DNA from: a virus
Lineage: Duplodnaviria; Heunggongvirae; Uroviricota; Caudoviricetes
IMG/VR virus record: IMGVR_UViG_3300029288_004479
Direction: 5' to 3' (one strand)
DNA: 49,292 nucleotides
The notes beneath the pieces were generated by a model that saw only the letters and a program-made list of their open reading frames with translations, did no database searches and had not been told where the DNA came from. Each line of letters begins with the position of its first letter. Within the stretch, counting starts at the first letter, position 1. The position numbers and the translations under genes were made by a program. Shown here piece by piece: positions 1-21,000 of this stretch.

Positions 1-890
1 ACGAAGAAGTAACCTTATCGCATAAGATCAAGGGAGGGGCAGACCTCGCGTTTCCGACAACGCCATGTGCGAAGTTCACGGATGTAAAACAAGTTGAAGT
101 CCATTATAATGAAGGCAAATGGTATCTGTCGATAGTGGACGAGATAGAACCGCCGGAATATCACGACAACGGGTTGTATCAGGCTTTTGATTTAGGAGTG
201 ACGAAACAGACGGCGGTAAATTTGGCAGGTAAGTTCTTTGAGAAAAAGAACATCCGACCGGATTTGTATTGGAACAAGCGAATTGATAAAATAACGAGCC
301 GTAGAGATCATTGTATAAAACACACTAAAACAAACAGCCGCCCGAGCAGTCGGCAATGGATACACTTGAATAATATTAAACGGAAATTCGAGAGAAAACG
401 GAGTAACCAGATCTTGGATTTCCAGCATAAGACCTCGAAGATGATCGTCGAGAATACGAGAGCCAACACCATTATTGTTGGCGATCTTGACGTGAAGAGT
501 ATGCCTCAGTCGGAGAAGGCAAATCGAAGGTTGAACCGGTCAACGCAGGGAACCGGATACCTTGCGAGGTTTGCGGGATTTCTAACCTACAAAGCAGAAA
601 AAGCAGGTAAGAAAGTAATAGAAATCAGCGAACGCAACACGACAAAGGCGTGCTGCAAGTGCGGGAAACTGCACGATATGCCGCCGAATATTCGTGTAAT
701 GAAATGTGATTGTGGGAACGTGATCGACAGGGATCGCAACGCAGCGGTCAATATCATGGTACGGTTCCTATCACAGAATGCAATGTGGACTTGCTATCGG
801 CAGTTCGCCGATAATCTGAGAAAAACAGGTCTGGAGATTCCAGTACACTCTCAGGAAATTCCACCCCTCGTTGGGGGGGGGGATAGTTCA
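1..890 (+). mobile_element. IS200/IS605-family element, right-hand part (left part lies upstream of the window)
   Basis: TnpB-like frame open from nt 3. It ends in a subterminal hairpin (ATTCCACCCC-TCGTT-GGGGGGGGGGAT, ~858-884) followed by AGTTCA, the typical right-end layout of this family. Confidence 0.8.
3..890 (+). CDS. tnpB: RNA-guided endonuclease TnpB, 5'-truncated by the window edge; no stop codon before the IS end
   Basis: The frame is open upstream of the ORF-track GTG at 135. Motifs: RuvC-I AFDLGV, RuvC-II region IIVGDL, ISERNTTK, Zn ribbon CCKCG...CDCG, RuvC-III DRDRNAAVNI. Confidence 0.88.
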
Positions 891-917
891 TATATTAGTA
901 ATCTAAAGATTACTATT
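887..917 (+). promoter_or_regulatory. Promoter of the ART-like gene: TTCATATA-N17-ACTATT, overlapping a near-perfect palindrome TAGTAATCT-AA-AGATTACTA (896-915)
   Basis: Same TATA-to-ACTATT spacing as other promoters in the window. RBS GGTGAGG at 918-924, ATG at 933. Confidence 0.55.
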
Positions 918-932
918 GGTGAGGAAACGCCA

Positions 933-1448
933 ATGGATAAACTTACTTTATACCACGGGTCAAACACGGATTTTACAAAGTTCGATTATAGATATATTGG
1001 AAAAGGAAATGACGAAGAAGGGCCGGGATTCTATCTTACCAGCAGCCTTGAGGATGCAAGAAAATATGGTAAATACGTGCACGTAGTTGACGCGTATTAT
1101 AGACGACTTGTGCCGCTCAAAGGCAAGAAGAATGCGAACGACGTTAAATATTTGATCCTGAACGCGCCCGATTATAAAAATACATTGCAAAATTGGGACG
1201 AGAATTGGAAGGTTGGGTTGGGGAAAGCGATTGAGGCAATAACGCGTTATACATCCTCACCGCACGATCTATACCAACAAGTCTGGATAGAATTTTATCG
1301 ATATGACCCGGTAGATTACGTTAAATCTATGATCAAACTCGGGTTTGATGGGGTGTTGATCAAGAGACCCTATAGGACAGATTCAGTAAAATCCAATATG
1401 GTTCATTTTGTAGCGTTTGATCCGGACAAACTGCACATAAGAAAATAG
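933..1448 (+). CDS. ADP-ribosyltransferase-like protein (ART-PolyVal-like), 171 aa
   Basis: Motifs YHGS..F..F, GPGFYLT..EDA.KYG, GFDGV and FVAFDP match the ART-PolyVal pattern. It has its own RBS and is in frame with tnpB. Confidence 0.7.
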   Translation: MDKLTLYHGSNTDFTKFDYRYIGKGNDEEGPGFYLTSSLEDARKYGKYVHVVDAYYRRLVPLKGKKNANDVKYLILNAPDYKNTLQNWDENWKVGLGKAIEAITRYTSSPHDLYQQVWIEFYRYDPVDYVKSMIKLGFDGVLIKRPYRTDSVKSNMVHFVAFDPDKLHIRK

Positions 1449-4779: not shown

Positions 4780-5154
4780 ATGGATTACAAACAAGTAATA
4801 TTAATTCGCATGGATATCGATATGTCGTGCGGTAAAAAATGCGTTCAGGTAGCGCACGCATCAATGATGGTGTGTGACGATGCAGAGCACCAGTCAGATG
4901 ACTATAAAGCACGTGAGTTCTGGAAAGAAGAGGGTATGCGTAAAGTTGTTTTAAAAGCTCCCGATCTCCCAACATTAAACGAATACGAGCGTAAAATACA
5001 ACAGTTAGGTATAGTAACTCACAAAGTCGTGGATTTCGGGTTAACGCAACTTGAACCGAATACAATTACAGCATTAGGTTGCGAACCTCTCAGAATAGAT
5101 AGTAAAAAAGGAATAGCACTTGCAGAGTTAACAAAGGAGTTGAAATTATTATGA
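4780..5154 (+). CDS. pth2: Peptidyl-tRNA hydrolase, Pth2 (archaeal/eukaryotic) type
   Basis: YKQVILIR.D..M..GK...QVAHAS, W..EG.RKVVLK and V.D.G.TQL.P.T.TALG match the Pth2 consensus, with the conserved K, D and T present. Confidence 0.9.
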   Translation: MDYKQVILIRMDIDMSCGKKCVQVAHASMMVCDDAEHQSDDYKAREFWKEEGMRKVVLKAPDLPTLNEYERKIQQLGIVTHKVVDFGLTQLEPNTITALGCEPLRIDSKKGIALAELTKELKLL

Positions 5155-10972: not shown

Positions 10973-12442
10973 TTATCTCCTCTCATAAATATCAAATATA
11001 TCATCATCCCACACTTTATAATATCCGGTCTCAAGTTTCTGTTTAACGGCAACATGCGTGGGTAGTGTATAGTTCTGCCATGATAGGTCATCAGAAATAA
11101 TATATTTACCTGTGTAATTTAATGTGCAATTAAGATTTTCCCAGTATTCAGGATATTTAGTCATGTTCCATTCAGGAGTATTCCGTTGTAATGGAAGTGG
11201 TAATACATACCTACAAGCAGACGGCGAATTGAAATAATAAGATGGTTCACCAGCGCTAAGATATAGTGTAGAGGGCTCGTTTGAAATATTGAATTTAAGA
11301 TCAACCTCTTTAGCAGCGGAATCAATGGAATTCCAATGTGCATATCCTTTATATCCCATCCCAAATGACCATCCGGCAACAAACACGGATAAACATAACA
11401 ATACTGCAACAATGATTATCCAGAAGACGCGCGTTTGGTTTGACAACACTTTCAATGCATAACAGCAGGTAATTATTGCAGGAACAACCATTGGAAAATA
11501 ATGGTAGTAAAAAAATTCTCCTTGGATAAATACCATTAAAATCGGAGGGAACCAAGACAATAAAATTAATAGGATATCTTTCAGTTGCGAATTGTCTACC
11601 TTAAGTATAATAAATGGTAATAACAAGAACCCAATTACAATCAGAGGTGAAAATGCAATTAACCCCATACTATACTCAAAGAAATATTCGAGTAATTTAT
11701 CCATACCTACCATTCCAATATGTGCAATCCCCGCTGAAAGGAACATATCTGATATGGAATGTGGGAATAGAAACCTTACAGAAATAAAATAAATTGCACT
11801 GGCAATTGCAAAACCGATTACGCACCAGATAAGTCTCTGTTTTATTTGTGCGATATCAACCCGATTGCCCCAAAAATTAATGAGAATCCACAGAGGTAAA
11901 ACGCTCAAGATAATAAACAGCGTAATTCCTTTTATTAAAATTAGGGGAATAATTAAAAACCCGGCAATTATCCACAACCCTTTTTTATCCTCTACCATTA
12001 GCGTTAATATAAGCAATCCCAGTATTGCAGCAAAGTACTCGCACTCCAACGCGACAAAATTACCTACGGCAAAGAATCCGAGAAAACCCATAATAAATGG
12101 ATATGTTAAGGGAATATGCACCTTTTCAGCAACCCTTTTAGAGAAATAGAATAAAATCACCAATACGAAAATGGATACTAATATTTTTAACCAGATCTGA
12201 TAAGTCCATCCAGAGAAGGGGTCTAATACATTCAAGATATAAAAGATTGCGCGGTTCCCAATGGGTTTTATCTCCCAAACCGTGTCAAGGTTCAGGGGGA
12301 ATGACCCGGACAATCGAGCTAATTTCTCCACACCAAGGTATATTCTAACATCAGAACCAAGCGGTTCAAGTAAGAATGATATTAGTATAAAAGGACAAAC
12401 TAATATGTATACTATATATTGTAAATATCTATTTATCAACAT
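10973..12442 (-). CDS. Polytopic membrane protein, probable GT-C glycosyltransferase
   Basis: DVRIYLG, DTVWEIKPIGNR, FYYHYFP, and a C-terminal PS.YYF..PSACRY shared with its paralog. Confidence 0.62.
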   Translation of the reverse strand: MLINRYLQYIVYILVCPFILISFLLEPLGSDVRIYLGVEKLARLSGSFPLNLDTVWEIKPIGNRAIFYILNVLDPFSGWTYQIWLKILVSIFVLVILFYFSKRVAEKVHIPLTYPFIMGFLGFFAVGNFVALECEYFAAILGLLILTLMVEDKKGLWIIAGFLIIPLILIKGITLFIILSVLPLWILINFWGNRVDIAQIKQRLIWCVIGFAIASAIYFISVRFLFPHSISDMFLSAGIAHIGMVGMDKLLEYFFEYSMGLIAFSPLIVIGFLLLPFIILKVDNSQLKDILLILLSWFPPILMVFIQGEFFYYHYFPMVVPAIITCCYALKVLSNQTRVFWIIIVAVLLCLSVFVAGWSFGMGYKGYAHWNSIDSAAKEVDLKFNISNEPSTLYLSAGEPSYYFNSPSACRYVLPLPLQRNTPEWNMTKYPEYWENLNCTLNYTGKYIISDDLSWQNYTLPTHVAVKQKLETGYYKVWDDDIFDIYERR

Positions 12443-12529: not shown

Positions 12530-12576
12530 TTTATATATGTGTGTGCTGTTTATAACTATTGTAGGTTTGGAGGAGG
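12530..12576 (+). promoter_or_regulatory. Strong promoter TTTATATA-N17-ACTATT plus SD GGAGGAGG (12569-12576)
   Basis: Consensus TATA box, window-wide ACTATT motif and an extended SD. Confidence 0.75.
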
Positions 12577-12590
12577 TTTCACAGAAACAC

Positions 12591-12905
12591 ATGCCAGTAG
12601 ATGCAACAGCAATCATCGGACTTCTGGTCGGATTTTTAGTCGTCGGCGTAATCGGTAAGTCTCGTAACGGGCTTAAAAAGAGAAAAGAAGCCTATTTGAG
12701 TCCCGGAATTTACGTGGGCGACCAAATGGTGCAGGCAGCTAACCTGTCCTCAGAAAACACACTGTACAGCTCACAACAGAGCATTATCGCGACGTTCCAG
12801 CTCGGTGTCACGTTATGTAAGATCATAGTTATCGTCTCTATCGCCAGTATCGTCTTCGTATTGCTCCAGAAAACCGGACTTATTCCGCGCTTCGGAGAGC
12901 AGTAA
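12591..12905 (+). CDS. Probable major capsid/coat protein (two hydrophobic helices); 104 aa unspliced, 87 aa after removing the predicted intron
   Basis: Strong promoter and SD, marked C-ending codon bias unlike the rest of the window, and a 3' hairpin. The helix-loop-helix hydrophobic layout resembles spindle-shaped archaeal virus coat proteins (inference). Confidence 0.68.
   Translation: MPVDATAIIGLLVGFLVVGVIGKSRNGLKKRKEAYLSPGIYVGDQMVQAANLSSENTLYSSQQSIIATFQLGVTLCKIIVIVSIASIVFVLLQKTGLIPRFGEQ
12658..12708 (+). other. Predicted 51-nt bulge-helix-bulge (tRNA-type) intron within the coat-protein mRNA
   Basis: Outer helix CGTAA(12647-51)/TTACG(12710-14); central 4 bp TCGG(12652-55)/CCGG(12703-06); 3-nt bulges TAA(12656-58) and AAT(12707-09); inner stems G-CTCG/TGAG-C and GGGCTT/AAGCCT. 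The splice is in frame and gives VIG-I-YVG. Confidence 0.85.
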
Positions 12906-12925: not shown

Positions 12926-12971
12926 GGGGGTGGTTCGTAAGAACCCCCCAATAAATTTTAAACCGTTTTTT
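12926..12971 (+). terminator. GC-rich 3' hairpin with GTAA tetraloop, followed by T tracts
   Basis: GGGG-T-GGTTC/GAACC-CCCC stem (12927-12949); TTTTTT at ~12966-12971. Confidence 0.65.
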
Positions 12972-13026
12972 AAACACTTACTAAAAATATATATCTGTAC
13001 TAAACATAATCTATTATGATTAATTA

Positions 13027-13866
13027 ATGTCAGTTATTACAGAATGCGCTTATTGCGGGGGAACTCTCTCAATAAAAAAATGTAAATATACACGCACCAC
13101 TCATCATTTTTGCAATAGAGACCATTATGGGAAATGGAGAAGTCAACACCAAATTGGAGAAAATAATCCCAATTATAAAGAAAAAATAAAACGCGTTTGT
13201 AAAAACTGTAATGTACAGTATGAATCATTTCCAAGTAACGTTCGTAATAAACAAGGATTTTGCTCATTAAAGTGCTATCATGAATGGAGGAGAAAACAAG
13301 CTAAACTGTGTGTTATAAAGTGTGTAGTTTGCGGGAAAGAAAAACAATCAAAACCAAGCAGATTAAAACGCGGAATAGATAAATGTTGCAGCAAACGATG
13401 TGAAAGTATATTAAAATCCCAAACACGACTTAGAGAAAATAACCCCAATTGGAAGAATGGCGCATCTCAAGAAACCTATTGCCCGAAATTCAACAGGCCG
13501 TTTAGGGAAGGCGTTAGGGAATTTTGGGGGCATATGTGTGGGTTGTGCGAAAAGAGACAAGAAGATAATATAATTATAAGAAGAGGCGAACCATTAGTAG
13601 CAAAACTGTCTGTCCACCACGTGAATTATAATAAAAGTGCCTGTTGTGATGGTCAGGAAACACATTGGATGTTTGCCCCAGTCTGTCACGAATGTCACGG
13701 AAAAACAAACGGGAAGAGGGACGATTGGAAAAAGATCTTATCGGATAAAATAATTAAAGAATATCAGGGGAAATCATATCTCACAGAAACAGAATATAAA
13801 CAATACTTTGCAAAGAAAAAACTGAACCCGGAATATACAATATTTGATCTGTTAACCACACAATAA
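13027..13866 (+). CDS. HNH endonuclease with N-terminal Zn-finger repeats (homing-endonuclease-like)
   Basis: Three CxxC...FCxxxC/H-like repeats, then CGLC...LSVHHVNYNK...FAPVCHECHGKTN. Confidence 0.85.
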   Translation: MSVITECAYCGGTLSIKKCKYTRTTHHFCNRDHYGKWRSQHQIGENNPNYKEKIKRVCKNCNVQYESFPSNVRNKQGFCSLKCYHEWRRKQAKLCVIKCVVCGKEKQSKPSRLKRGIDKCCSKRCESILKSQTRLRENNPNWKNGASQETYCPKFNRPFREGVREFWGHMCGLCEKRQEDNIIIRRGEPLVAKLSVHHVNYNKSACCDGQETHWMFAPVCHECHGKTNGKRDDWKKILSDKIIKEYQGKSYLTETEYKQYFAKKKLNPEYTIFDLLTTQ

Positions 13867-13954
13867 TTTTTTAACAACCAAAATGCGTGTAAATATATAG
13901 ATCTCTCTTTTTAATGCACAAAACCCGATAAAATTGTGCATATACAGGAAAATA

Positions 13955-14001
13955 CTTAAATACTGCTACTACTATTAACACTATTGTAGGTTTGGAGGAG
14001 G
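13955..14001 (+). promoter_or_regulatory. Promoter CTTAAATA-N17-ACTATT plus a leader identical to the coat-gene leader
   Basis: ACTATTGTAGGTTTGGAGGAGGT is identical at 12555 and 13980. Confidence 0.7.
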
Positions 14002-14197
14002 TCAACAAAGACAATGCCAGTAGATGCCAGAGCACAGTATAATCAAGGACAGGTCACGTTGTATAAAGTAGATGTACTAAGTAGCGTCTACTTGTGCATA
14101 CAATCCAGCCTACACTAGATTCGTGCAAAGCATCCAAAAAAACGCAACTTGGTATATAGTATCAAGTTGTGGCATAGTCTTTTTTCGATACTCCTAC
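13985..14197 (+). ncRNA. Candidate structured ncRNA (~210 nt) mimicking the coat-gene 5' end; contains a 34-codon ORF (14014-14118)
   Basis: Stems: AAAGAC-ATGCCA/TGGCAT-GTCTTT, GATGC/GCATC, GCAC/GTGC, TTGTAT/ATACAA, AAGTAGATG/CGTCTACTT, GCAACTTGGTAT/GTATCAAGTTGT and AGGAG/CTCCT. Confidence 0.55.
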
Positions 14198-14254
14198 TAT
14201 AATGAACAAACGGGGAGAAAAATACCAACAAACAGGTGAGGTGCATATTCGATT

Positions 14255-14947
14255 ATGGCAGATGACAGTATAACGGCGAGGATAAAAAATCTCCTCCCCT
14301 CAAAAAGAACAAATGAAAAACAACAATATGAACCAAAAGTTCCACAATTACCTGATTATGCAGAACCAGTGACGGTAAATGACGGTCTTTTTGAAGACGA
14401 TCCAATAGGTGGGGAAGGGCCGTTTCCAAAAATCGAAGACAAATCTGGTAATGTAATTGATCAATCGCTCATGCGTCAACCGTCGTATGAGGAGAACCAG
14501 ATTCAGTTGATGAACGATATAGCTTCGGATGAAAGTCTGGGAGTATTAACATATTACATCCAAAACTTATCACAACTGGGTAACAAAGCACAAGCTCGGT
14601 TAGTAACAAGAGCAACAGCATTCCAGAGTAAAAACCAAGTCTTCTCAAACATCGAAAATCAACGCGATTATTTAATGGCGCAAGATGATTTTGAATATGC
14701 CAAAATATTAAGCAAAGCTGATTTTACCTCGTTTGATATGAACGCGGATTATTATGTTGCAGAAGCAATCATGGAAGCTCAGTTTAATATCAGGTTACGC
14801 CGTTCAAAGCGTGCACTTAACTTATTGCAATTGAATACACAGAGAAGCGAATCCGGGCCAACTGGCGGTTATCACCAGCAACAAGAGAAACAAGGTATCT
14901 TACAAAAACTATCATTTTTAGGTGGTAACAGAGGCGGAGGATACTAA
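14255..14947 (+). CDS. Hypothetical protein, 230 aa
   Basis: RBS AGGTGAGG; long ORF with window-typical codon use. Confidence 0.8.
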   Translation: MADDSITARIKNLLPSKRTNEKQQYEPKVPQLPDYAEPVTVNDGLFEDDPIGGEGPFPKIEDKSGNVIDQSLMRQPSYEENQIQLMNDIASDESLGVLTYYIQNLSQLGNKAQARLVTRATAFQSKNQVFSNIENQRDYLMAQDDFEYAKILSKADFTSFDMNADYYVAEAIMEAQFNIRLRRSKRALNLLQLNTQRSESGPTGGYHQQQEKQGILQKLSFLGGNRGGGY

Positions 14948-14951
14948 TAAC

Positions 14952-15794
14952 ATGGCGGTTTTAGGCGGAACAACCTCATTACCAACTTTCGCATTATATG
15001 CATTAGGCGGGTACGCACTTATTGCATCAATAGTAGCATTTCAGTTCATAATGGCGATGAGAAATACGCCATTAATGAAAGCTATAAATGAAGCACTAAA
15101 TGGAGAAAAACATCTTGTATTTGTGCATTACGCATCGGGACAAGCGAAAGTAGTTGTACCAAGATATGTAGAACCAATAGAGACTGATGGAAAGGTTTCC
15201 CCCTATTGGATTATCGACGGCACATACCGGTTTAAGGATGCAACCGGTGAGAAATGGGAATCAATAGGATCATTAAAAGTATTACACTATTCAGCAAGAA
15301 CAACGCAAGCGATGAGTGTAGATCAAGCAATAGCTATTGACCAGTTTAATGATATCCTTGCAAGTCACGGGTATTCAACAAAAGGCTTCCTTAAAGAAGT
15401 ATTCTATATGCTCGGGGAATCCGCAAAAGGAGAGGAATCTGAACGAGCCGCTTGGCAGAGATTAGCCAATGGAAATACAAGCGAACACACCCTTAACAAG
15501 ATCAACGAGGTATTACAGTTCGTTAAAAAACATCCGGAAGTAAAATATGTAATGTTAAAAACCGGTGCATTTACTTATAAAACATCAGTATCAGTAGTTG
15601 ATCAGTTAATCGGTCAGGGAGTAACAAATTTATCTCATACAATATCGTTTGTTGAAGACAGGACTCGAAGAAGATTACAAGATAGATTTGAAAACATGAT
15701 GAAATATGCAATGTTAGCAATTATGATCATGATACCGGCAGCGATTGCAGGAGTAATCTTCTTAGTAGGTACAGGAATGGTGAAAATGGGATGA
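14952..15794 (+). CDS. Membrane protein with N- and C-terminal TMs (280 aa); start moved to ATG 14952
   Basis: Hydrophobic ends flanking a soluble domain; GGAGG upstream. Confidence 0.8.
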   Translation: MAVLGGTTSLPTFALYALGGYALIASIVAFQFIMAMRNTPLMKAINEALNGEKHLVFVHYASGQAKVVVPRYVEPIETDGKVSPYWIIDGTYRFKDATGEKWESIGSLKVLHYSARTTQAMSVDQAIAIDQFNDILASHGYSTKGFLKEVFYMLGESAKGEESERAAWQRLANGNTSEHTLNKINEVLQFVKKHPEVKYVMLKTGAFTYKTSVSVVDQLIGQGVTNLSHTISFVEDRTRRRLQDRFENMMKYAMLAIMIMIPAAIAGVIFLVGTGMVKMG

Positions 15795-15795
15795 T
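15690..15795 (+). repeat. ~105-bp direct repeat, copy 1 (encodes MKYAMLA.MIMIPAAIAGVIFLVGTG.VK.G plus the next ATG)
   Basis: Near-identical to 16036-16141. Confidence 0.9.
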
Positions 15796-15949
15796 AATTG
15801 AAATACCAGACACGATTACTCTTCCGATACTAACATTTTCTGTATTGGGGGTTCTTGCTATTGTAGGTTTTATGTATATATTCAGGTGGTTTGTATTGAG
15901 ATCAAGAACAACGAACAGACATCAGAAAGATAGGAAAGATCCACAATGA
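15791..15949 (+). CDS. Single-TM microprotein, 52 aa (not in the ORF track)
   Basis: ATGA overlaps at both ends. MIIEIPDTITLPILTFSVLGVLAIVGFMYIFRWFVLRSRTTNRHQKDRKDPQ. Confidence 0.65.
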   Translation: MIIEIPDTITLPILTFSVLGVLAIVGFMYIFRWFVLRSRTTNRHQKDRKDPQ

Positions 15950-16140
15950 CATGGGAACAAGGAACCGATCAAACCGTCGCCAATCAATATCAGATCGCCA
16001 TCGAAACATCAGACGTATCAAGGGTTGAGGAAATGGAAAACGCAATGAAATATGCGATGTTGGCCCTTATGATCATGATACCGGCAGCGATTGCAGGAGT
16101 TATCTTCTTAGTAGGTACGGGCACGGTGAAGATAGGATGA
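15946..16140 (+). CDS. Microprotein carrying a duplicate of the C-terminal TM of 14952-15794
   Basis: The last ~33 aa are nearly identical to that C-terminus; coupled by ATGA overlaps. Confidence 0.65.
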   Translation: MTWEQGTDQTVANQYQIAIETSDVSRVEEMENAMKYAMLALMIMIPAAIAGVIFLVGTGTVKIG

Positions 16141-16141
16141 T
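16036..16141 (+). repeat. ~105-bp direct repeat, copy 2
   Basis: Near-identical to 15690-15795. Confidence 0.9.
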
Positions 16142-16301
16142 CGATCAACTCCTTAACACGGTGATTGTAATACCGTGGTGGAAATTTATGATAATCATAG
16201 TATTACTGATTATTGTGATGTTTTACGCCGTATGGATATTATGGGTAAATAAACGACAGAACGATAAAATCAAAAAACTTGAAATGGCAGCGAAAAAATG
16301 A
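16137..16301 (+). CDS. Single-TM microprotein, 54 aa (not in the ORF track)
   Basis: ATGA overlaps at both ends. MIDQLLNTVIVIPWWKFMIIIVLLIIVMFYAVWILWVNKRQNDKIKKLEMAAKK. Confidence 0.65.
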   Translation: MIDQLLNTVIVIPWWKFMIIIVLLIIVMFYAVWILWVNKRQNDKIKKLEMAAKK

Positions 16302-16573
16302 CTAGTATATTCTATCGTATAGAAGAAAACCCGTTATTATTATTAGGCTTAATTATATGGGTGGTGTGGAGCACAGGATATTTAGTCCAGACTCTTACGA
16401 TGACATACGCTGGCGAGGCAAAAGATTTTTGTGGACTTATATTAGGATTGGTTGCACTGCTTGGAATAATGATACCATATGCAGTATTGGGCCATTCATT
16501 GGGCAGGGTGAAGAGTTCAACAGAAGAAGAAACAATAATTGAGGAAGTTAAGGAAAAAGAGGAGGAAAAATGA
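16298..16573 (+). CDS. Two-TM protein with an acidic tail
   Basis: Hydropathy pattern; translationally coupled. Confidence 0.7.
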   Translation: MTSIFYRIEENPLLLLGLIIWVVWSTGYLVQTLTMTYAGEAKDFCGLILGLVALLGIMIPYAVLGHSLGRVKSSTEEETIIEEVKEKEEEK

Positions 16574-17046
16574 ATTATTATTTAGCAATTCCAACGGGTT
16601 TATTGGGAGTTATAATATATGCAGTAGTTGTGGCAGGTATAATTGCAGCATTAGGCATTTACAAATGGAAAAAGGAAAGAAAAAATGGAACAACTCTAAC
16701 AAAAACAGAATTAATCCACCAGTTCAATGAACTTATACGCCGTTCAACCACAATTTTTGTATCTTTTGTAGGATTAATGCTCATATTATTAATGGCAAAT
16801 GCGGGCGGGATTATTATTGAATCTGGTCATCCAGAGTGGGGGGTATGGATGGCAGTAGGATTAATAGTAGCAGCAATATTCACATTTATTTATTTACCTG
16901 TTATGGTATGTGTCGAATGGGGTATGTTCTTCGTGAATGTTATAACCCTCGCATGTGATAATTATGTTAAATCGAATGCACCATTGGAGCATTACACACG
17001 ATCAAAAATATGCCACGTAAAAACAGAAGAAGAGGATGATTGGTAA
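16570..17046 (+). CDS. Multi-TM membrane protein
   Basis: Three to four hydrophobic segments; GGAGG RBS. Confidence 0.75.
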   Translation: MNYYLAIPTGLLGVIIYAVVVAGIIAALGIYKWKKERKNGTTLTKTELIHQFNELIRRSTTIFVSFVGLMLILLMANAGGIIIESGHPEWGVWMAVGLIVAAIFTFIYLPVMVCVEWGMFFVNVITLACDNYVKSNAPLEHYTRSKICHVKTEEEDDW

Positions 17047-17241
17047 ATGCCGCCGCCAGATGCAAACGAAGGATCGGGATTAGGTATCGATTGGTTCAAG
17101 ATAACCGTCCAATATCTCGTACCGGGAATGCTGATACTTGCCATACTGGGAGTCATCATATACCAATACGGATCAACCGATACGGGCGGGAACAGCATAT
17201 TCTATGATGTTGGAAGTATAATGTTCAACTTCGGTGGTTAA
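17047..17241 (+). CDS. Single-TM microprotein, 64 aa
   Basis: Adjacent to the upstream stop; central TM. Confidence 0.6.
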   Translation: MPPPDANEGSGLGIDWFKITVQYLVPGMLILAILGVIIYQYGSTDTGGNSIFYDVGSIMFNFGG

Positions 17242-17267
17242 TGCCGTAAAAACATGAGGTAACGGAA

Positions 17268-17591
17268 ATGTATGAGGAGGTTCTGGATTATCTCGAACAA
17301 AAAGAAGGGCAACTCTCGAAAACAATTTTTATTATTTTCGGAGTAATGATAGCATCGCTGCTGTTCTCACTTTATATTAATAATGAGTTTGCCACAGTAG
17401 TATCAGCAATACAAGATCCAGAAGGAACCAAACCAGATATCGTAGAAGATCCAGCATATATATTATTTGTAATTTGTTTGATAACTGAATTAATAGCAGG
17501 CGGGGTATGGTTTGGTATTACAATTATTATACGGGGTATACGGATATTGGAACGTAACGCTCATGGAACGCCGATACAGTGGTGGGGGTAA
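17268..17591 (+). CDS. Two-TM protein, paralog family B (copy 1)
   Basis: MYEEVLDYLEQKE N-terminus, two TMs and a GIR.LE.N C-terminal motif. Confidence 0.75.
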   Translation: MYEEVLDYLEQKEGQLSKTIFIIFGVMIASLLFSLYINNEFATVVSAIQDPEGTKPDIVEDPAYILFVICLITELIAGGVWFGITIIIRGIRILERNAHGTPIQWWG

Positions 17592-17596
17592 TAGGA

Positions 17597-17953
17597 ATGT
17601 ATGAAGATTTAATGGATGATTTAGATCAAAAAGATCATTTCTTGAATAGGTATATTACAGTGCTTGCATTAATCACAATACCGCTTGTTATTACACTGTT
17701 TGGTATTTCTTATACACAAGAACATTTACCCTCATTTGATATTAATTCAATTCTCCAACATAAACTTGAAAAGAATGTATCGGCCTATGAAGAACCATTT
17801 AAAACAATATATTATACCGCCATAGTTATGTTATGTGCGGTTTTTGTTCTTTTATGTATTATACTCGGGATATCTACAAGTATACTCATAACACGATGGG
17901 GAATAAGAAAAATTCAGAGAAATATGAATAGACCAATCCAACAGTATGGATAA
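17597..17953 (+). CDS. Two-TM protein, family B (copy 2); start moved to ATG 17597
   Basis: MYEDLMDDLDQKD N-terminus; WGIRKIQRN...PIQQ parallels copy 1. Confidence 0.75.
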   Translation: MYEDLMDDLDQKDHFLNRYITVLALITIPLVITLFGISYTQEHLPSFDINSILQHKLEKNVSAYEEPFKTIYYTAIVMLCAVFVLLCIILGISTSILITRWGIRKIQRNMNRPIQQYG

Positions 17954-17998
17954 GGAGAACCCAAATGCCAGAATATACCAAAAACGGAGATAAATAAA

Positions 17999-18310
17999 AT
18001 GAAATATACAGCAGAAACCGCTATAAAAACGTATGAGGAGAAGTTGAATAAACTCGAAACACAATATTTTCAACTCTCATGGGGATTTATATTAGGAGCA
18101 ATAGCCATTGTAACATATCAATTAACAATATCCGGGATACACCCGTTTAGTGCAATAATATCAAAAGATGTGCCATCAGAACTCGTCACCGCACTCACGG
18201 GGATAGGGTTAGTCCTGATGGTAATTGGGATATTTATGTTGGGTATGGCATTAATGTCGAGATTAAACCTCGATTATTTAAAAGAACTGCAATCTAACGT
18301 GAAGGAGTGA
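17999..18310 (+). CDS. Two-TM protein, family B-like (copy 3)
   Basis: YEEKLNKLETQ followed by two TMs. Confidence 0.7.
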   Translation: MKYTAETAIKTYEEKLNKLETQYFQLSWGFILGAIAIVTYQLTISGIHPFSAIISKDVPSELVTALTGIGLVLMVIGIFMLGMALMSRLNLDYLKELQSNVKE

Positions 18311-18314
18311 AAAA

Positions 18315-18938
18315 ATGGCAGAACCCGGTGGCAACGCATTTTCAGCAGGGGGAGTTAATCCCGCAGCAGCGAGCAGAGAAGAGTTACGCCAGCAACCAAT
18401 TGATATTAAAAATATGTTGCCCGTCTATATTTTTATGGGTATGGAATATGCCAGTTTTATTGAAAGCAATTTACCGTTCGGGCAAACTCCTCAACGACGG
18501 CACATCGTAGATTTCCACAGAACGTTCTGGCATATCTACAATTATGTCAAGAACTCGGTCGATATGGACAAACTCAATCCCGATCTTGTCGATAAAATTG
18601 ACGATTGGTTTGAACTATTTAAAACCCAGAACCACCGCACGGATTTAATTGAGGCAGGAGTCCAGTTATTCCTTGCGCTGGTAAAAAACATGCAGGAGTG
18701 GGGTATTGGGCAACTGTTTGAGAAAGGTATTGATCCGCCATTCCAGACAGAAGATGTAGATGACCTTGAAATGTTAATTGAGGATTTAGAAGAAGAAGTT
18801 GTTGCAGACAATCTCGAAGATTATGAAAAACAAATCGAAGAACAAAATGCAGATGTTCCTGTGCAAGAAATAATGCCATTACAGGAAGGAGAACAAGATT
18901 ATGCAACAGAGGTTAATCAGAATGGAGATAATAACTAA
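18315..18938 (+). CDS. Hypothetical protein with an acidic C-terminal tail, 207 aa
   Basis: RBS GGAGTGA; long ORF. Confidence 0.8.
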   Translation: MAEPGGNAFSAGGVNPAAASREELRQQPIDIKNMLPVYIFMGMEYASFIESNLPFGQTPQRRHIVDFHRTFWHIYNYVKNSVDMDKLNPDLVDKIDDWFELFKTQNHRTDLIEAGVQLFLALVKNMQEWGIGQLFEKGIDPPFQTEDVDDLEMLIEDLEEEVVADNLEDYEKQIEEQNADVPVQEIMPLQEGEQDYATEVNQNGDNN

Positions 18939-19189
18939 TGACAGACACAACAGGTAGGGTAAAAGTAAGCACATTAATTGTAGCAACGATTCCAGCATAC
19001 ATTATAATAGCATCAGCATTAACGTGGTTTTCTGCTGGAAAAATAGATCCGATCTCAATATTGGGAATTCATGTGGCTATATTCTTCGGACTATATTTTA
19101 CAATTGGTGTTGGAATTAATCTCGGGAAACGGGTAGAAAAAGGCGACGACCGATTTATTGTTAAATGTAATGAGGTAAAAAAATGTTAG
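18938..19189 (+). CDS. Two-TM microprotein
   Basis: Hydropathy pattern; TAATG coupling. Confidence 0.7.
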   Translation: MTDTTGRVKVSTLIVATIPAYIIIASALTWFSAGKIDPISILGIHVAIFFGLYFTIGVGINLGKRVEKGDDRFIVKCNEVKKC

Positions 19190-19416
19190 ATTCGGGCAAA
19201 GAAATAAATGTATTTGCTGGGATGGGGATAGGTTTTGCCATTATTTGTTTGATAATAAAAATACTTTATTATCCGGCAGAACCAGTCTCACTCTCAATCG
19301 TTATGACGGCAATGATAGTATCAATCGGACTTGCAGCATATTTTGCCGGATTGTCTCTTGGGTATCATCTTGGATATGGTAAACGAGATAAAGAATGTGA
19401 TACCAGCAATGAGTGA
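19183..19416 (+). CDS. Two-TM microprotein (paralog-like to 18938)
   Basis: Ends G..LG..LG.GK like its neighbour. Confidence 0.7.
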   Translation: MLDSGKEINVFAGMGIGFAIICLIIKILYYPAEPVSLSIVMTAMIVSIGLAAYFAGLSLGYHLGYGKRDKECDTSNE

Positions 19417-19576
19417 CACAAAAGCAGTTCGGTGGAGTATAACAAGTGGTGTGATTATTGCATTTGTGGGTTTTTTTATACTAACGATATTCTGTGGGAG
19501 CGATAAATTAACCGGGTGGCAATCTGTTGTGCTCGTACTAATGTATATATCAACTACATTTATGGTATGGGTATAA
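19409..19576 (+). CDS. Two-TM microprotein, 55 aa; start moved to ATG 19409
   Basis: MSDTKAVRWSITSGVIIAFVGFF...; overlaps the upstream stop. Confidence 0.6.
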   Translation: MSDTKAVRWSITSGVIIAFVGFFILTIFCGSDKLTGWQSVVLVLMYISTTFMVWV

Positions 19577-19612
19577 CAATTGGGTTATTATTAAACAGAT
19601 GGACTAAAAAAG

Positions 19613-20128
19613 GTGAGGAAAATGTTTGAAGACCAGTTTACCGGAGAACTATCAGAAGAACAAGTATTGTTCCGTCAAATCCTGTTAATCAACGGATTAG
19701 CGACACGTATATTTGGGGATACCACTACAAACTGGCAGGTCAATGTCCGTAACTATGTAGAAACGATTAACAACTTTGAAGCTACGGCAATAAGACATAT
19801 AGATCGGGAGTACATCGAAAAGAAACGAATTATTGTTAAAAAAAGCCAGCAGGAATTACAAAGATATCGGGATGCAAACCCTAAAAGTACATCAACGAAT
19901 CAGGGAAAAGAATTTGAAATGCAATTAACCTTAAAATATGCCAGACGGGTATTTGCATTACTAATGATAACTTTGAACAATAAAGATGTATTCAACGAGA
20001 AATCATATCGTGCAATTGAAGATGTAAAAGACCACGAACTTACTGGGGGCGGGGGTATGCACGTAACGAGCGGACAGCAGCATCATGAATTACCGGGTGG
20101 CGTGAATCCACCGGGTTCACAACAATGA
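19613..20128 (+). CDS. Hypothetical helical protein upstream of the ATPase
   Basis: ORF coupled to the ATPase by an ATGA overlap. The exact start (GTG 19613 or ATG 19622) is uncertain. Confidence 0.75.
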   Translation: MRKMFEDQFTGELSEEQVLFRQILLINGLATRIFGDTTTNWQVNVRNYVETINNFEATAIRHIDREYIEKKRIIVKKSQQELQRYRDANPKSTSTNQGKEFEMQLTLKYARRVFALLMITLNNKDVFNEKSYRAIEDVKDHELTGGGGMHVTSGQQHHELPGGVNPPGSQQ

Positions 20129-21000
20129 TTCGAATTGACCCAGATATTGTAATCAGAAAGTACGTACAGAACCGTATAACTGCCAATAAAAACTGGTTAT
20201 CCGTACTCTGTGGCCCGACAGGATCAGGCAAATCATATTTTTCGTTGGCGGTTTGTGAAAAATTTTTCCCAAAATTTACTGTGGATAACATTGTATTTTC
20301 AGTTAAAGAATATCTAGATAAATTTAACGAATTAGATAAGCAACGAAGGTATGGAGACATTATTCTTTTTGATGAAGGTCACGAATATAACGCCAGACGT
20401 AGCATGGACGAAAAAAACGTTATGATGGGTGAAATATTAAGTATGATTCGGTTCACTCGTATCTCCAGTATATTTACATTACCCGATCTAAGACAAATCG
20501 ACGTAGCATTAGTAAGGTTAATGCACAACTATTGTTATACGTTTGATATAGATCGTAAAACCTGTCCACAATGGCAGAAAACACGAACAGGAGTTAAATT
20601 CTATGAAATTATGCATGAAGCAATCCCAAGAAAAGACTCTCGTGAATTACCAATGAGATACCCGGTAATGAACGTAGTCGTTCGAAACATGAGAACAGAA
20701 CAATTATATGAAAAAACCATTAAAATTAAAGAGTTGTGGTATAATGCACCAAGCGAACAATTATTAGAAGATTACGAGAAATTAAAACGCCGTCACTTTA
20801 ACCGTGCACTTGCAATGTCAAGAGCAAAATTACAGGCAGTAGATATGAAACAAAGAAACAAACTCAGTGCCACCGGGATAAATCCGGATGGGGAAGACGG
20901 CACACCGCAAACACCAATCCCACAAAACCCCGCACCGGCAAATACGCCCTCTACACACCAAGAGACGCAAAACGCAATTAATAGCATATTAAATTCATAA
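20125..21000 (+). CDS. P-loop ATPase, Zot-like viral morphogenesis/extrusion type
   Basis: Walker A GPTGSGKS, Walker B IILFDE, and TLPDLRQID..LVRL matching the Zot-like (Q..D..R) pattern. Confidence 0.8.
   Translation: MIRIDPDIVIRKYVQNRITANKNWLSVLCGPTGSGKSYFSLAVCEKFFPKFTVDNIVFSVKEYLDKFNELDKQRRYGDIILFDEGHEYNARRSMDEKNVMMGEILSMIRFTRISSIFTLPDLRQIDVALVRLMHNYCYTFDIDRKTCPQWQKTRTGVKFYEIMHEAIPRKDSRELPMRYPVMNVVVRNMRTEQLYEKTIKIKELWYNAPSEQLLEDYEKLKRRHFNRALAMSRAKLQAVDMKQRNKLSATGINPDGEDGTPQTPIPQNPAPANTPSTHQETQNAINSILNS

Follow-up and report, generated by a model that had tools for sequence, protein, structure and literature searches.

A predicted, in-frame BHB intron in a coat-like gene of a virus-like archaeal element, probably open by coincidence

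The coat-like gene and its surroundings

The stretch of DNA analysed here, 49,292 nucleotides long (IMG/VR record IMGVR_UViG_3300029288_004479) and referred to as the window, carries on its plus strand an open reading frame at 12591-12905. Translated as it stands, this frame gives a protein of 104 amino acids with a Lys/Arg-rich segment, KSRNGLKKRKEAYLSPG, after residue 22. Splicing in silico gives a product of 87 amino acids. The gene and its signals are listed below.

12530..12537, + strand: putative TATA-like box (TTTATATA) upstream of the coat-like gene, identified by eye
12549-12555, + strand: putative second A/T box, identified by eye
12569..12576, + strand: Shine-Dalgarno-like GGAGGAGG, with the ATG 14 nt downstream
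12591..12657, + strand: exon 1, from M1 to the first base of codon 23, encoding the N-terminal half of hydrophobic helix 1
12658..12708, + strand: predicted 51-nt BHB intron in phase 1, with no stop in the entering frame and giving KSRNGLKKRKEAYLSPG if read through
12709..12905, + strand: exon 2 and stop codon, encoding the rest of helix 1 (IYVGDQM...), the loop and hydrophobic helix 2
12927..12971, + strand: G+C-rich hairpin (12927-49) followed by T runs at 12956-59 and 12966-71, identified by eye

A longer open reading frame starting at 12261 was considered and rejected as an upstream run-on, the true start being the one that sits behind the GGAGGAGG ribosome-binding site. The leader that carries this site is conserved in five related loci (L039, L040, L043, L044 and L045). 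A sigma-70 promoter scan is inapplicable to archaeal promoters. Region 12927-12971 is likely the transcript end of the coat-like gene and is conserved in L045; the hairpin at 12927-49 was not called by an intrinsic-terminator scan. The promoter-proximal leader recurs about 1.4 kb downstream, at 13975-14030, together with the ribosome-binding site and the initial 14 nt of the reading frame (12549-12611), and there precedes unrelated sequence. A 202-nt contig from runs X1 and X2 matches the window over 12549-12578 and again over 12943-12972, 30 nt in each case, with 142 differing letters between the two matches. Based on these shared ends around other sequence, the leader and terminator seem to serve more than once as the frame of a cassette.

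AlphaFold models an intron-less homologue as a two-helix hairpin (helices 5-34 and 41-78, mean pLDDT 74.7), for which Foldseek searches against the PDB and BFVD returned only generic helical hairpins (E > 0.5). None of 25 family members matched a Pfam family at E up to 10, searches of PHROG and of PDB sequences gave no match for the coat-like family, and a scan of IMG/VR found no relative. Deposited phage and archaeal-virus genomes contained no match for the 87-aa protein or for a conserved 290-aa neighbour. A language-model search placed the family among clusters labelled mostly viral, and the nearest clusters with a Pfam assignment were Fusellovirus VP1 and the His1 capsid protein (0.84-0.85), which serves as a lead only.

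Tandem paralogues of the 87-aa protein are present in many loci. Long paralogues of about 275 aa, often in tandem with short copies, carry an additional, Gly-rich domain in the loop that connects the hydrophobic helices (L003 2061-2873; L005 817-1647; L006 1395-2222; L014 2959-3783; L015 668-1546). The position of this domain suggests that the inter-helix loop is surface-exposed. In these same five loci, split tblastn matches lying about 500 nt apart were considered as large introns and rejected, given that they are continuous reading frames with the Gly-rich domain.

The coat-like gene heads a conserved module that is found in up to 19 loci and includes the window genes at 14255-14947, 14922-15794, 18315-18938 and 19613-20128 and a P-loop ATPase gene at 20125-21000. 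Over 13027-21000 the module encodes a Cys-rich 279-aa protein, proteins of 230 and 290 aa of no known family, proteins of 207 and 171 aa, and the ATPase. This module may represent the morphogenesis core in a group of viruses so far undescribed. The tandem paralogues, the Gly-rich long forms, the conserved module and the placement among viral clusters all point towards a structural protein. Judged from sequence and structural models, it is plausible that the hydrophobic 87-aa hairpin protein belongs to the virion or coat of a large virus-like archaeal element so far undescribed.

The element is known from metagenomes alone, among them those of landfill and groundwater sites (runs X1-X4). The single match in a search of genome collections was L001 (JBAZKI010000026.1), a 7.7-kb contig binned as a Patescibacteria MAG, which is probably a mis-binned viral contig. 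It matches L019 (metagenome contig Ga0265297_10017891) in length and contains the coat-like family in two tandem copies. Elsewhere in the window, the gene at 135-1448 (+) encodes an unusual fusion, in which an OrfB_IS605 and Cas12f1-like TNB (TnpB/Cas12f-like) protein has a C-terminal ART-PolyVal ADP-ribosyltransferase domain (E = 1e-10). A PTH2-family peptidyl-tRNA hydrolase gene lies at 4780-5154 (+; Pfam PF01981, E = 4e-28).

A predicted BHB intron within helix 1

Folded as RNA, 12636-12726 adopts a strict hBHBh' motif of 3-4-3 geometry, at -31 kcal/mol (z = -4.06; 0 of 200 shuffles folded as well). Its parts are as follows.

12639..12651, + strand: outer (exon-exon) helix, 5' strand, pairing with 12710-12722, with one G.G mismatch (12645/12716)
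12652..12658, + strand: central helix, 5' strand UCGG (12652-55), and 5' bulge UAA (12656-58), with the predicted cut between 12657 and 12658
12659..12702, + strand: inner intron stem-loop, in which 12659-74 pairs with 12688-702 around a loop at 12675-87
12703..12709, + strand: central helix, 3' strand CCGG (12703-06), and 3' bulge AAU (12707-09), with the predicted cut between 12708 and 12709
12710..12722, + strand: outer helix, 3' strand, within exon 2

The outer helix forms 12 of its 13 pairs. Archaeal EndA substrates are cleaved after the second base of each bulge, a rule derived from tRNA 37/38 introns. Cutting after the second bulge base on both sides delimits the intron as 12658-12708. 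On the basis of structure and comparison with relatives, this segment is predicted to be a canonical archaeal BHB intron that is spliced. In both 3-nt bulges the host EndA would cleave behind the second base, and ligation of the exons by an RtcB-type enzyme would then restore the family-wide VGVIG-I-YVGDQM. The 49-kb window itself has no EndA or RtcB domain.

The earlier note had pointed out that the intron is stop-free and a multiple of three. This is the case: the 51 nt correspond to 17 codons that are free of stops in the reading frame, and the other two frames contain one and two stops. The odds of an intron being both a multiple of three and open are 1/3 x 0.32, or about 0.11 (20,000 shuffles were used for the open frame). 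The open in-frame state is therefore real, but statistically unremarkable for one intron.

Relatives with and without introns

A protein search retrieved about 95 relatives. Nearly all have 86-89 aa, in agreement with the 87 aa predicted after splicing, and alignment A1 shows them as VGVIG-[IV]YVGDQ, without extra residues where the joint is predicted. One relative, P0099 on contig L045, was found by exhaustive profile search. L045 and the window are syntenic, with about 92% identity over 900 nt, and at the intron site L045 has a clean gap of exactly 51 nt. Between the in-silico spliced coding sequence and that of L045, 21 of 264 nt differ, and only one of 87 amino acids. Eleven of these 21 differences, every one of the eleven synonymous, are found no more than 25 nt from the joint (Fisher P = 3e-4). 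The synonymous differences cluster at the outer helix, where the window has the bulge-adjacent pairs and L045 is without them. A metagenome contig of another relative (X2 record 7) tracks exon 1, departs exactly after 12657 and continues into an intron-less exon 2.

Loci were also located through exon-2 peptide patterns. Helix 1 is free of introns in all of their about 42 distinct copies of the gene, which indicates that BHB introns are rare and sporadic in this family. The intron looks like a recent, sporadic gain. In intron-less copies, 8.2 of 12 positions across the would-be outer helix are already complementary, compared with about 4.5 at random, and the bulge-adjacent pairs are missing. 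The sequence coding for VVGVIG and YVGDQ, being already self-complementary, would offer a ready-made outer helix for incoming introns, and this would account for independent insertion at three sites inside a span of 21 nt. Regarding mobility, when five introns were used as blastn-short queries on the window and all loci, no further copy came up.

Introns in helix 1 are present in four additional loci. L039 has a 99-nt intron at the same site as the window (1253-1351), which is in frame. L040 has one of 32 nt, located 15 nt upstream of the window site (5081-5112). L043 (649-733) and L044 (973-1057) have introns of 85 nt each, 6 nt downstream of the window site. The last three break the frame. 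Each of the three insertion sites of the family falls in codon phase 1. The 3-4-3 geometry is present in L040, L043 and L044 as well, and with three of four central pairs in L039 and in a further, 50-nt allele described below. In-silico splicing restores the family protein in each of L039, L040, L043 and L044. Between L043 and L044 about 40% of intron positions differ, and the inner stems are kept by four compensatory double changes, a small sample.

The 50-nt allele comes from run X3, a landfill metagenome, in which a 195-nt contig (depth 6.9) is found beside a 196-nt contig that is identical to the window over 12602-12797. It was rebuilt from the difference table of this one short contig. 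All three indels are inside the intron and their net effect is -1, resulting in an intron of 50 nt. The outer helix of this allele is 8/8 paired, with a 12716 G>C change that mends the G.G mismatch of the window, and its spliced product is identical to that of the window, whereas its unspliced reading is frameshifted into nonsense. Compared with the 51-nt allele, the intron has 11 substitutions in 51 positions (22%) plus the three indels, and the exons have 10 in 145 (7%; P = 0.007). The intron thus diverges about three times faster than the exons. Such fast divergence, accompanied by indels, indicates that the insert is not under coding constraint.

These comparisons bear on whether there is an intron at all. 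The segment could be an ordinary in-frame insertion of 17 codons that is always translated, its hairpin shape being incidental; the reading frame is intact without splicing, and in-frame indels are common in viral structural genes. However, the 3-4-3 bulge geometry matches the boundaries of the indel to the base, synonymous changes have remodelled the two exon flanks into the outer helix, and the sister inserts of 32, 50 and 85 nt, which have the same architecture, allow the protein only if they are spliced. Together with the compensatory changes and the z-score of the fold, these observations make an ordinary insertion very unlikely.

The fate of unspliced RNA and comparison with known systems

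Two further statements of the earlier note held up: the unspliced mRNA formally encodes a 104-aa protein with the basic insert, as conceptual translation demonstrates, and the insert falls in the middle of helix 1, given that the joint is at residues 22/23 and the helix spans residues 5-34 in the model of the intron-less homologue. From this it had been proposed that incomplete splicing makes a minor 104-aa coat variant, in which the basic loop binds DNA or alters membrane topology. The frame is open and the insert strongly basic, and large natural inserts are tolerated in the family, though in the inter-helix loop and not in helix 1. Against a selected second form, four of the five other family introns (50, 32, 85 and 85 nt) break the frame and only the 99-nt intron keeps it. 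The 50-nt allele goes out of frame after a few codons, the peptide of the same-site 99-nt intron is non-basic, and no relationship is seen among the peptides encoded by the 51-, 50- and 99-nt introns. The near-identical strain L045 is without the intron. The insert also cuts the most conserved motif of the family, and in the AlphaFold model of the unspliced form helix 1 is broken into 5-26 and 40-50, with residues 28-37 below a pLDDT of 50. By these sequence comparisons, the intron-encoded peptide is neither conserved nor under purifying selection, and the in-frame, stop-free state is not conserved among homologous introns, four of the six being frame-breaking. A minor isoform with a function of its own is thus hardly credible. 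Peptides that would distinguish the unspliced 104-aa form include SRNGLK and EAYLSPGIYVGDQ...

The frame-breaking alleles, the divergence of the intron, the broken helix and the intron-less strain all argue that the 104-aa product is not a selected isoform. We therefore favor the reading, with a probability of roughly 0.7, that the gene for the 87-aa protein contains a BHB intron, that the length divisible by three and the open frame are a coincidence of the window allele, and that any unspliced protein is a by-product. Unspliced mRNA, if translated, would yield the 104-aa protein with helix 1 split by a basic loop of 17 aa, which would be tolerated or wasted.

One pattern does not follow from coincidence as readily. 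All six family introns, including the rebuilt 50-nt allele, are stop-free in the frame that enters from exon 1, and the other two frames mostly hold 1-4 stops. Based on shuffling, the probabilities of having no stop in the entering frame are 0.32, 0.39, 0.05, 0.46, 0.09 and 0.09, and the combined probability over four independent lineages is about 7e-4; for the 99-nt intron the chance of being both in frame and open is about 0.05 x 1/3. The count of six may be inflated by gene-caller ascertainment, given that L043 and L044 were found as read-through reading frames. Exon-2-only reading frames, which would be expected from stop-bearing introns, were absent from 98 + 70 matches and from a search for shorter proteins. 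The earlier note had named in advance stops or frameshifts, if common in homologous introns, as an observation that would speak against an isoform. The family does speak against it in this way, with frameshifts in 4/5 of the other introns; stops in the entering frame are seen in 0/6.

The stop-free pattern could reflect selection for introns that do not stop or derail ribosomes, in which case the window allele yields a full-length, tolerated but functionless 104-aa protein. In a cell without a nucleus, and with a strong ribosome-binding site 66 nt ahead of the intron, unspliced RNA would often be read by ribosomes. The six open entering frames, the two introns that keep the frame (51 and 99 nt), the lack of exon-2-only reading frames in the searches above and the conservation of the GGAGGAGG leader are consistent with this explanation. 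However, read-through of the four frame-breaking introns gives nonsense C-termini of 39-87 aa, yet these alleles persist, and the nearest allele lost the frame through a change of one nucleotide; ascertainment is biased for L043 and L044. The suggestion in the earlier note that an open frame makes failed splicing less costly consequently fails as a general rule, most alleles being without such rescue, and is conceivable for the window allele. We consider selection of this kind unlikely overall.

For the frame-breaking introns, openness is without benefit at the protein level. The 6/6 pattern gives a hint that the translation of unspliced RNA may be of consequence. In the strongest form of this idea, introns are kept stop-free because ribosomes routinely translate the pre-mRNA, and the 51- and 99-nt alleles give a genuine second form that bears the insert. 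This is quite improbable in our assessment; if true, it would constitute endonuclease-dependent alternative splicing in an archaeal virus. With coincidence as the preferred reading, to which the comparative evidence points, the locus is a caution against reading function into an open intron. It is also a clean natural experiment, with near-identical strains that have or are without the intron, 51- and 50-nt alleles in one sample, and three sites in one helix. It permits direct tests of BHB intron gain and of the competition between translation and splicing in cells without a nucleus.

In its protein, the locus has features in common with the spindle-shaped viruses. Like VP1/VP3 of the Fuselloviridae (PF06281) and the His1 capsid protein (PF25665), the coat-like protein has about 70-90 aa and two hydrophobic helices that form a hairpin, and as with spindle-virus capsid genes there are tandem paralogues and linkage to a conserved module that ends in a P-loop ATPase. 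In contrast to those proteins, the family has no sequence or profile match to PF06281 or PF25665.

In the literature searched, protein-coding BHB introns are essentially those of cbf5 alone, plus one intron in a UTR, and none is described in a viral gene. The UTR case is the HVO_1309 mRNA of Haloferax volcanii, which has a BHB intron in its 5' UTR and beside which cbf5 was counted, as of 2020, as the sole other mRNA case (PMC7714728). The window gene is similar in that an mRNA, outside tRNA and rRNA, is the (here predicted) substrate of the splicing endonuclease; the HVO_1309 intron differs in being in a UTR, where no question of reading frame arises. Among archaeal viruses, the account of rudivirus SIRV1 cited in a later study describes putative introns or indels of 12 bp in its reading frames that are possibly translated and not spliced (Peng et al. 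2004, cited in PMC2738675). According to that account, these resemble the window insert as short in-frame inserts in archaeal virus genes that differ between variants. They are 12 bp long and their splicing, as cited there, was not demonstrated, whereas the predicted window BHB is canonical and its sister alleles, being frame-breaking, must be spliced.

A close parallel is the cbf5 pre-mRNA of Crenarchaeota, the classical protein-coding BHB intron, for which splicing was shown experimentally (Watanabe 2002; Yokobori 2009, PMC2738675) and in which introns of 33, 36 and 39 nt keep the reading frame (Yokobori 2009, PMC2738675). Both are short tRNA-type introns in a coding sequence, with sporadic gain and loss among relatives and some members in frame. 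Unlike cbf5, which encodes a cellular enzyme and whose splicing is experimental, the window intron, with predicted splicing, is on a virus-like element, in a small, hydrophobic gene of structural type. Family introns range from 32 to 99 nt, compared with 16-44 nt for cbf5, occupy three insertion sites within 21 nt, and differ in presence or absence between near-identical strains.
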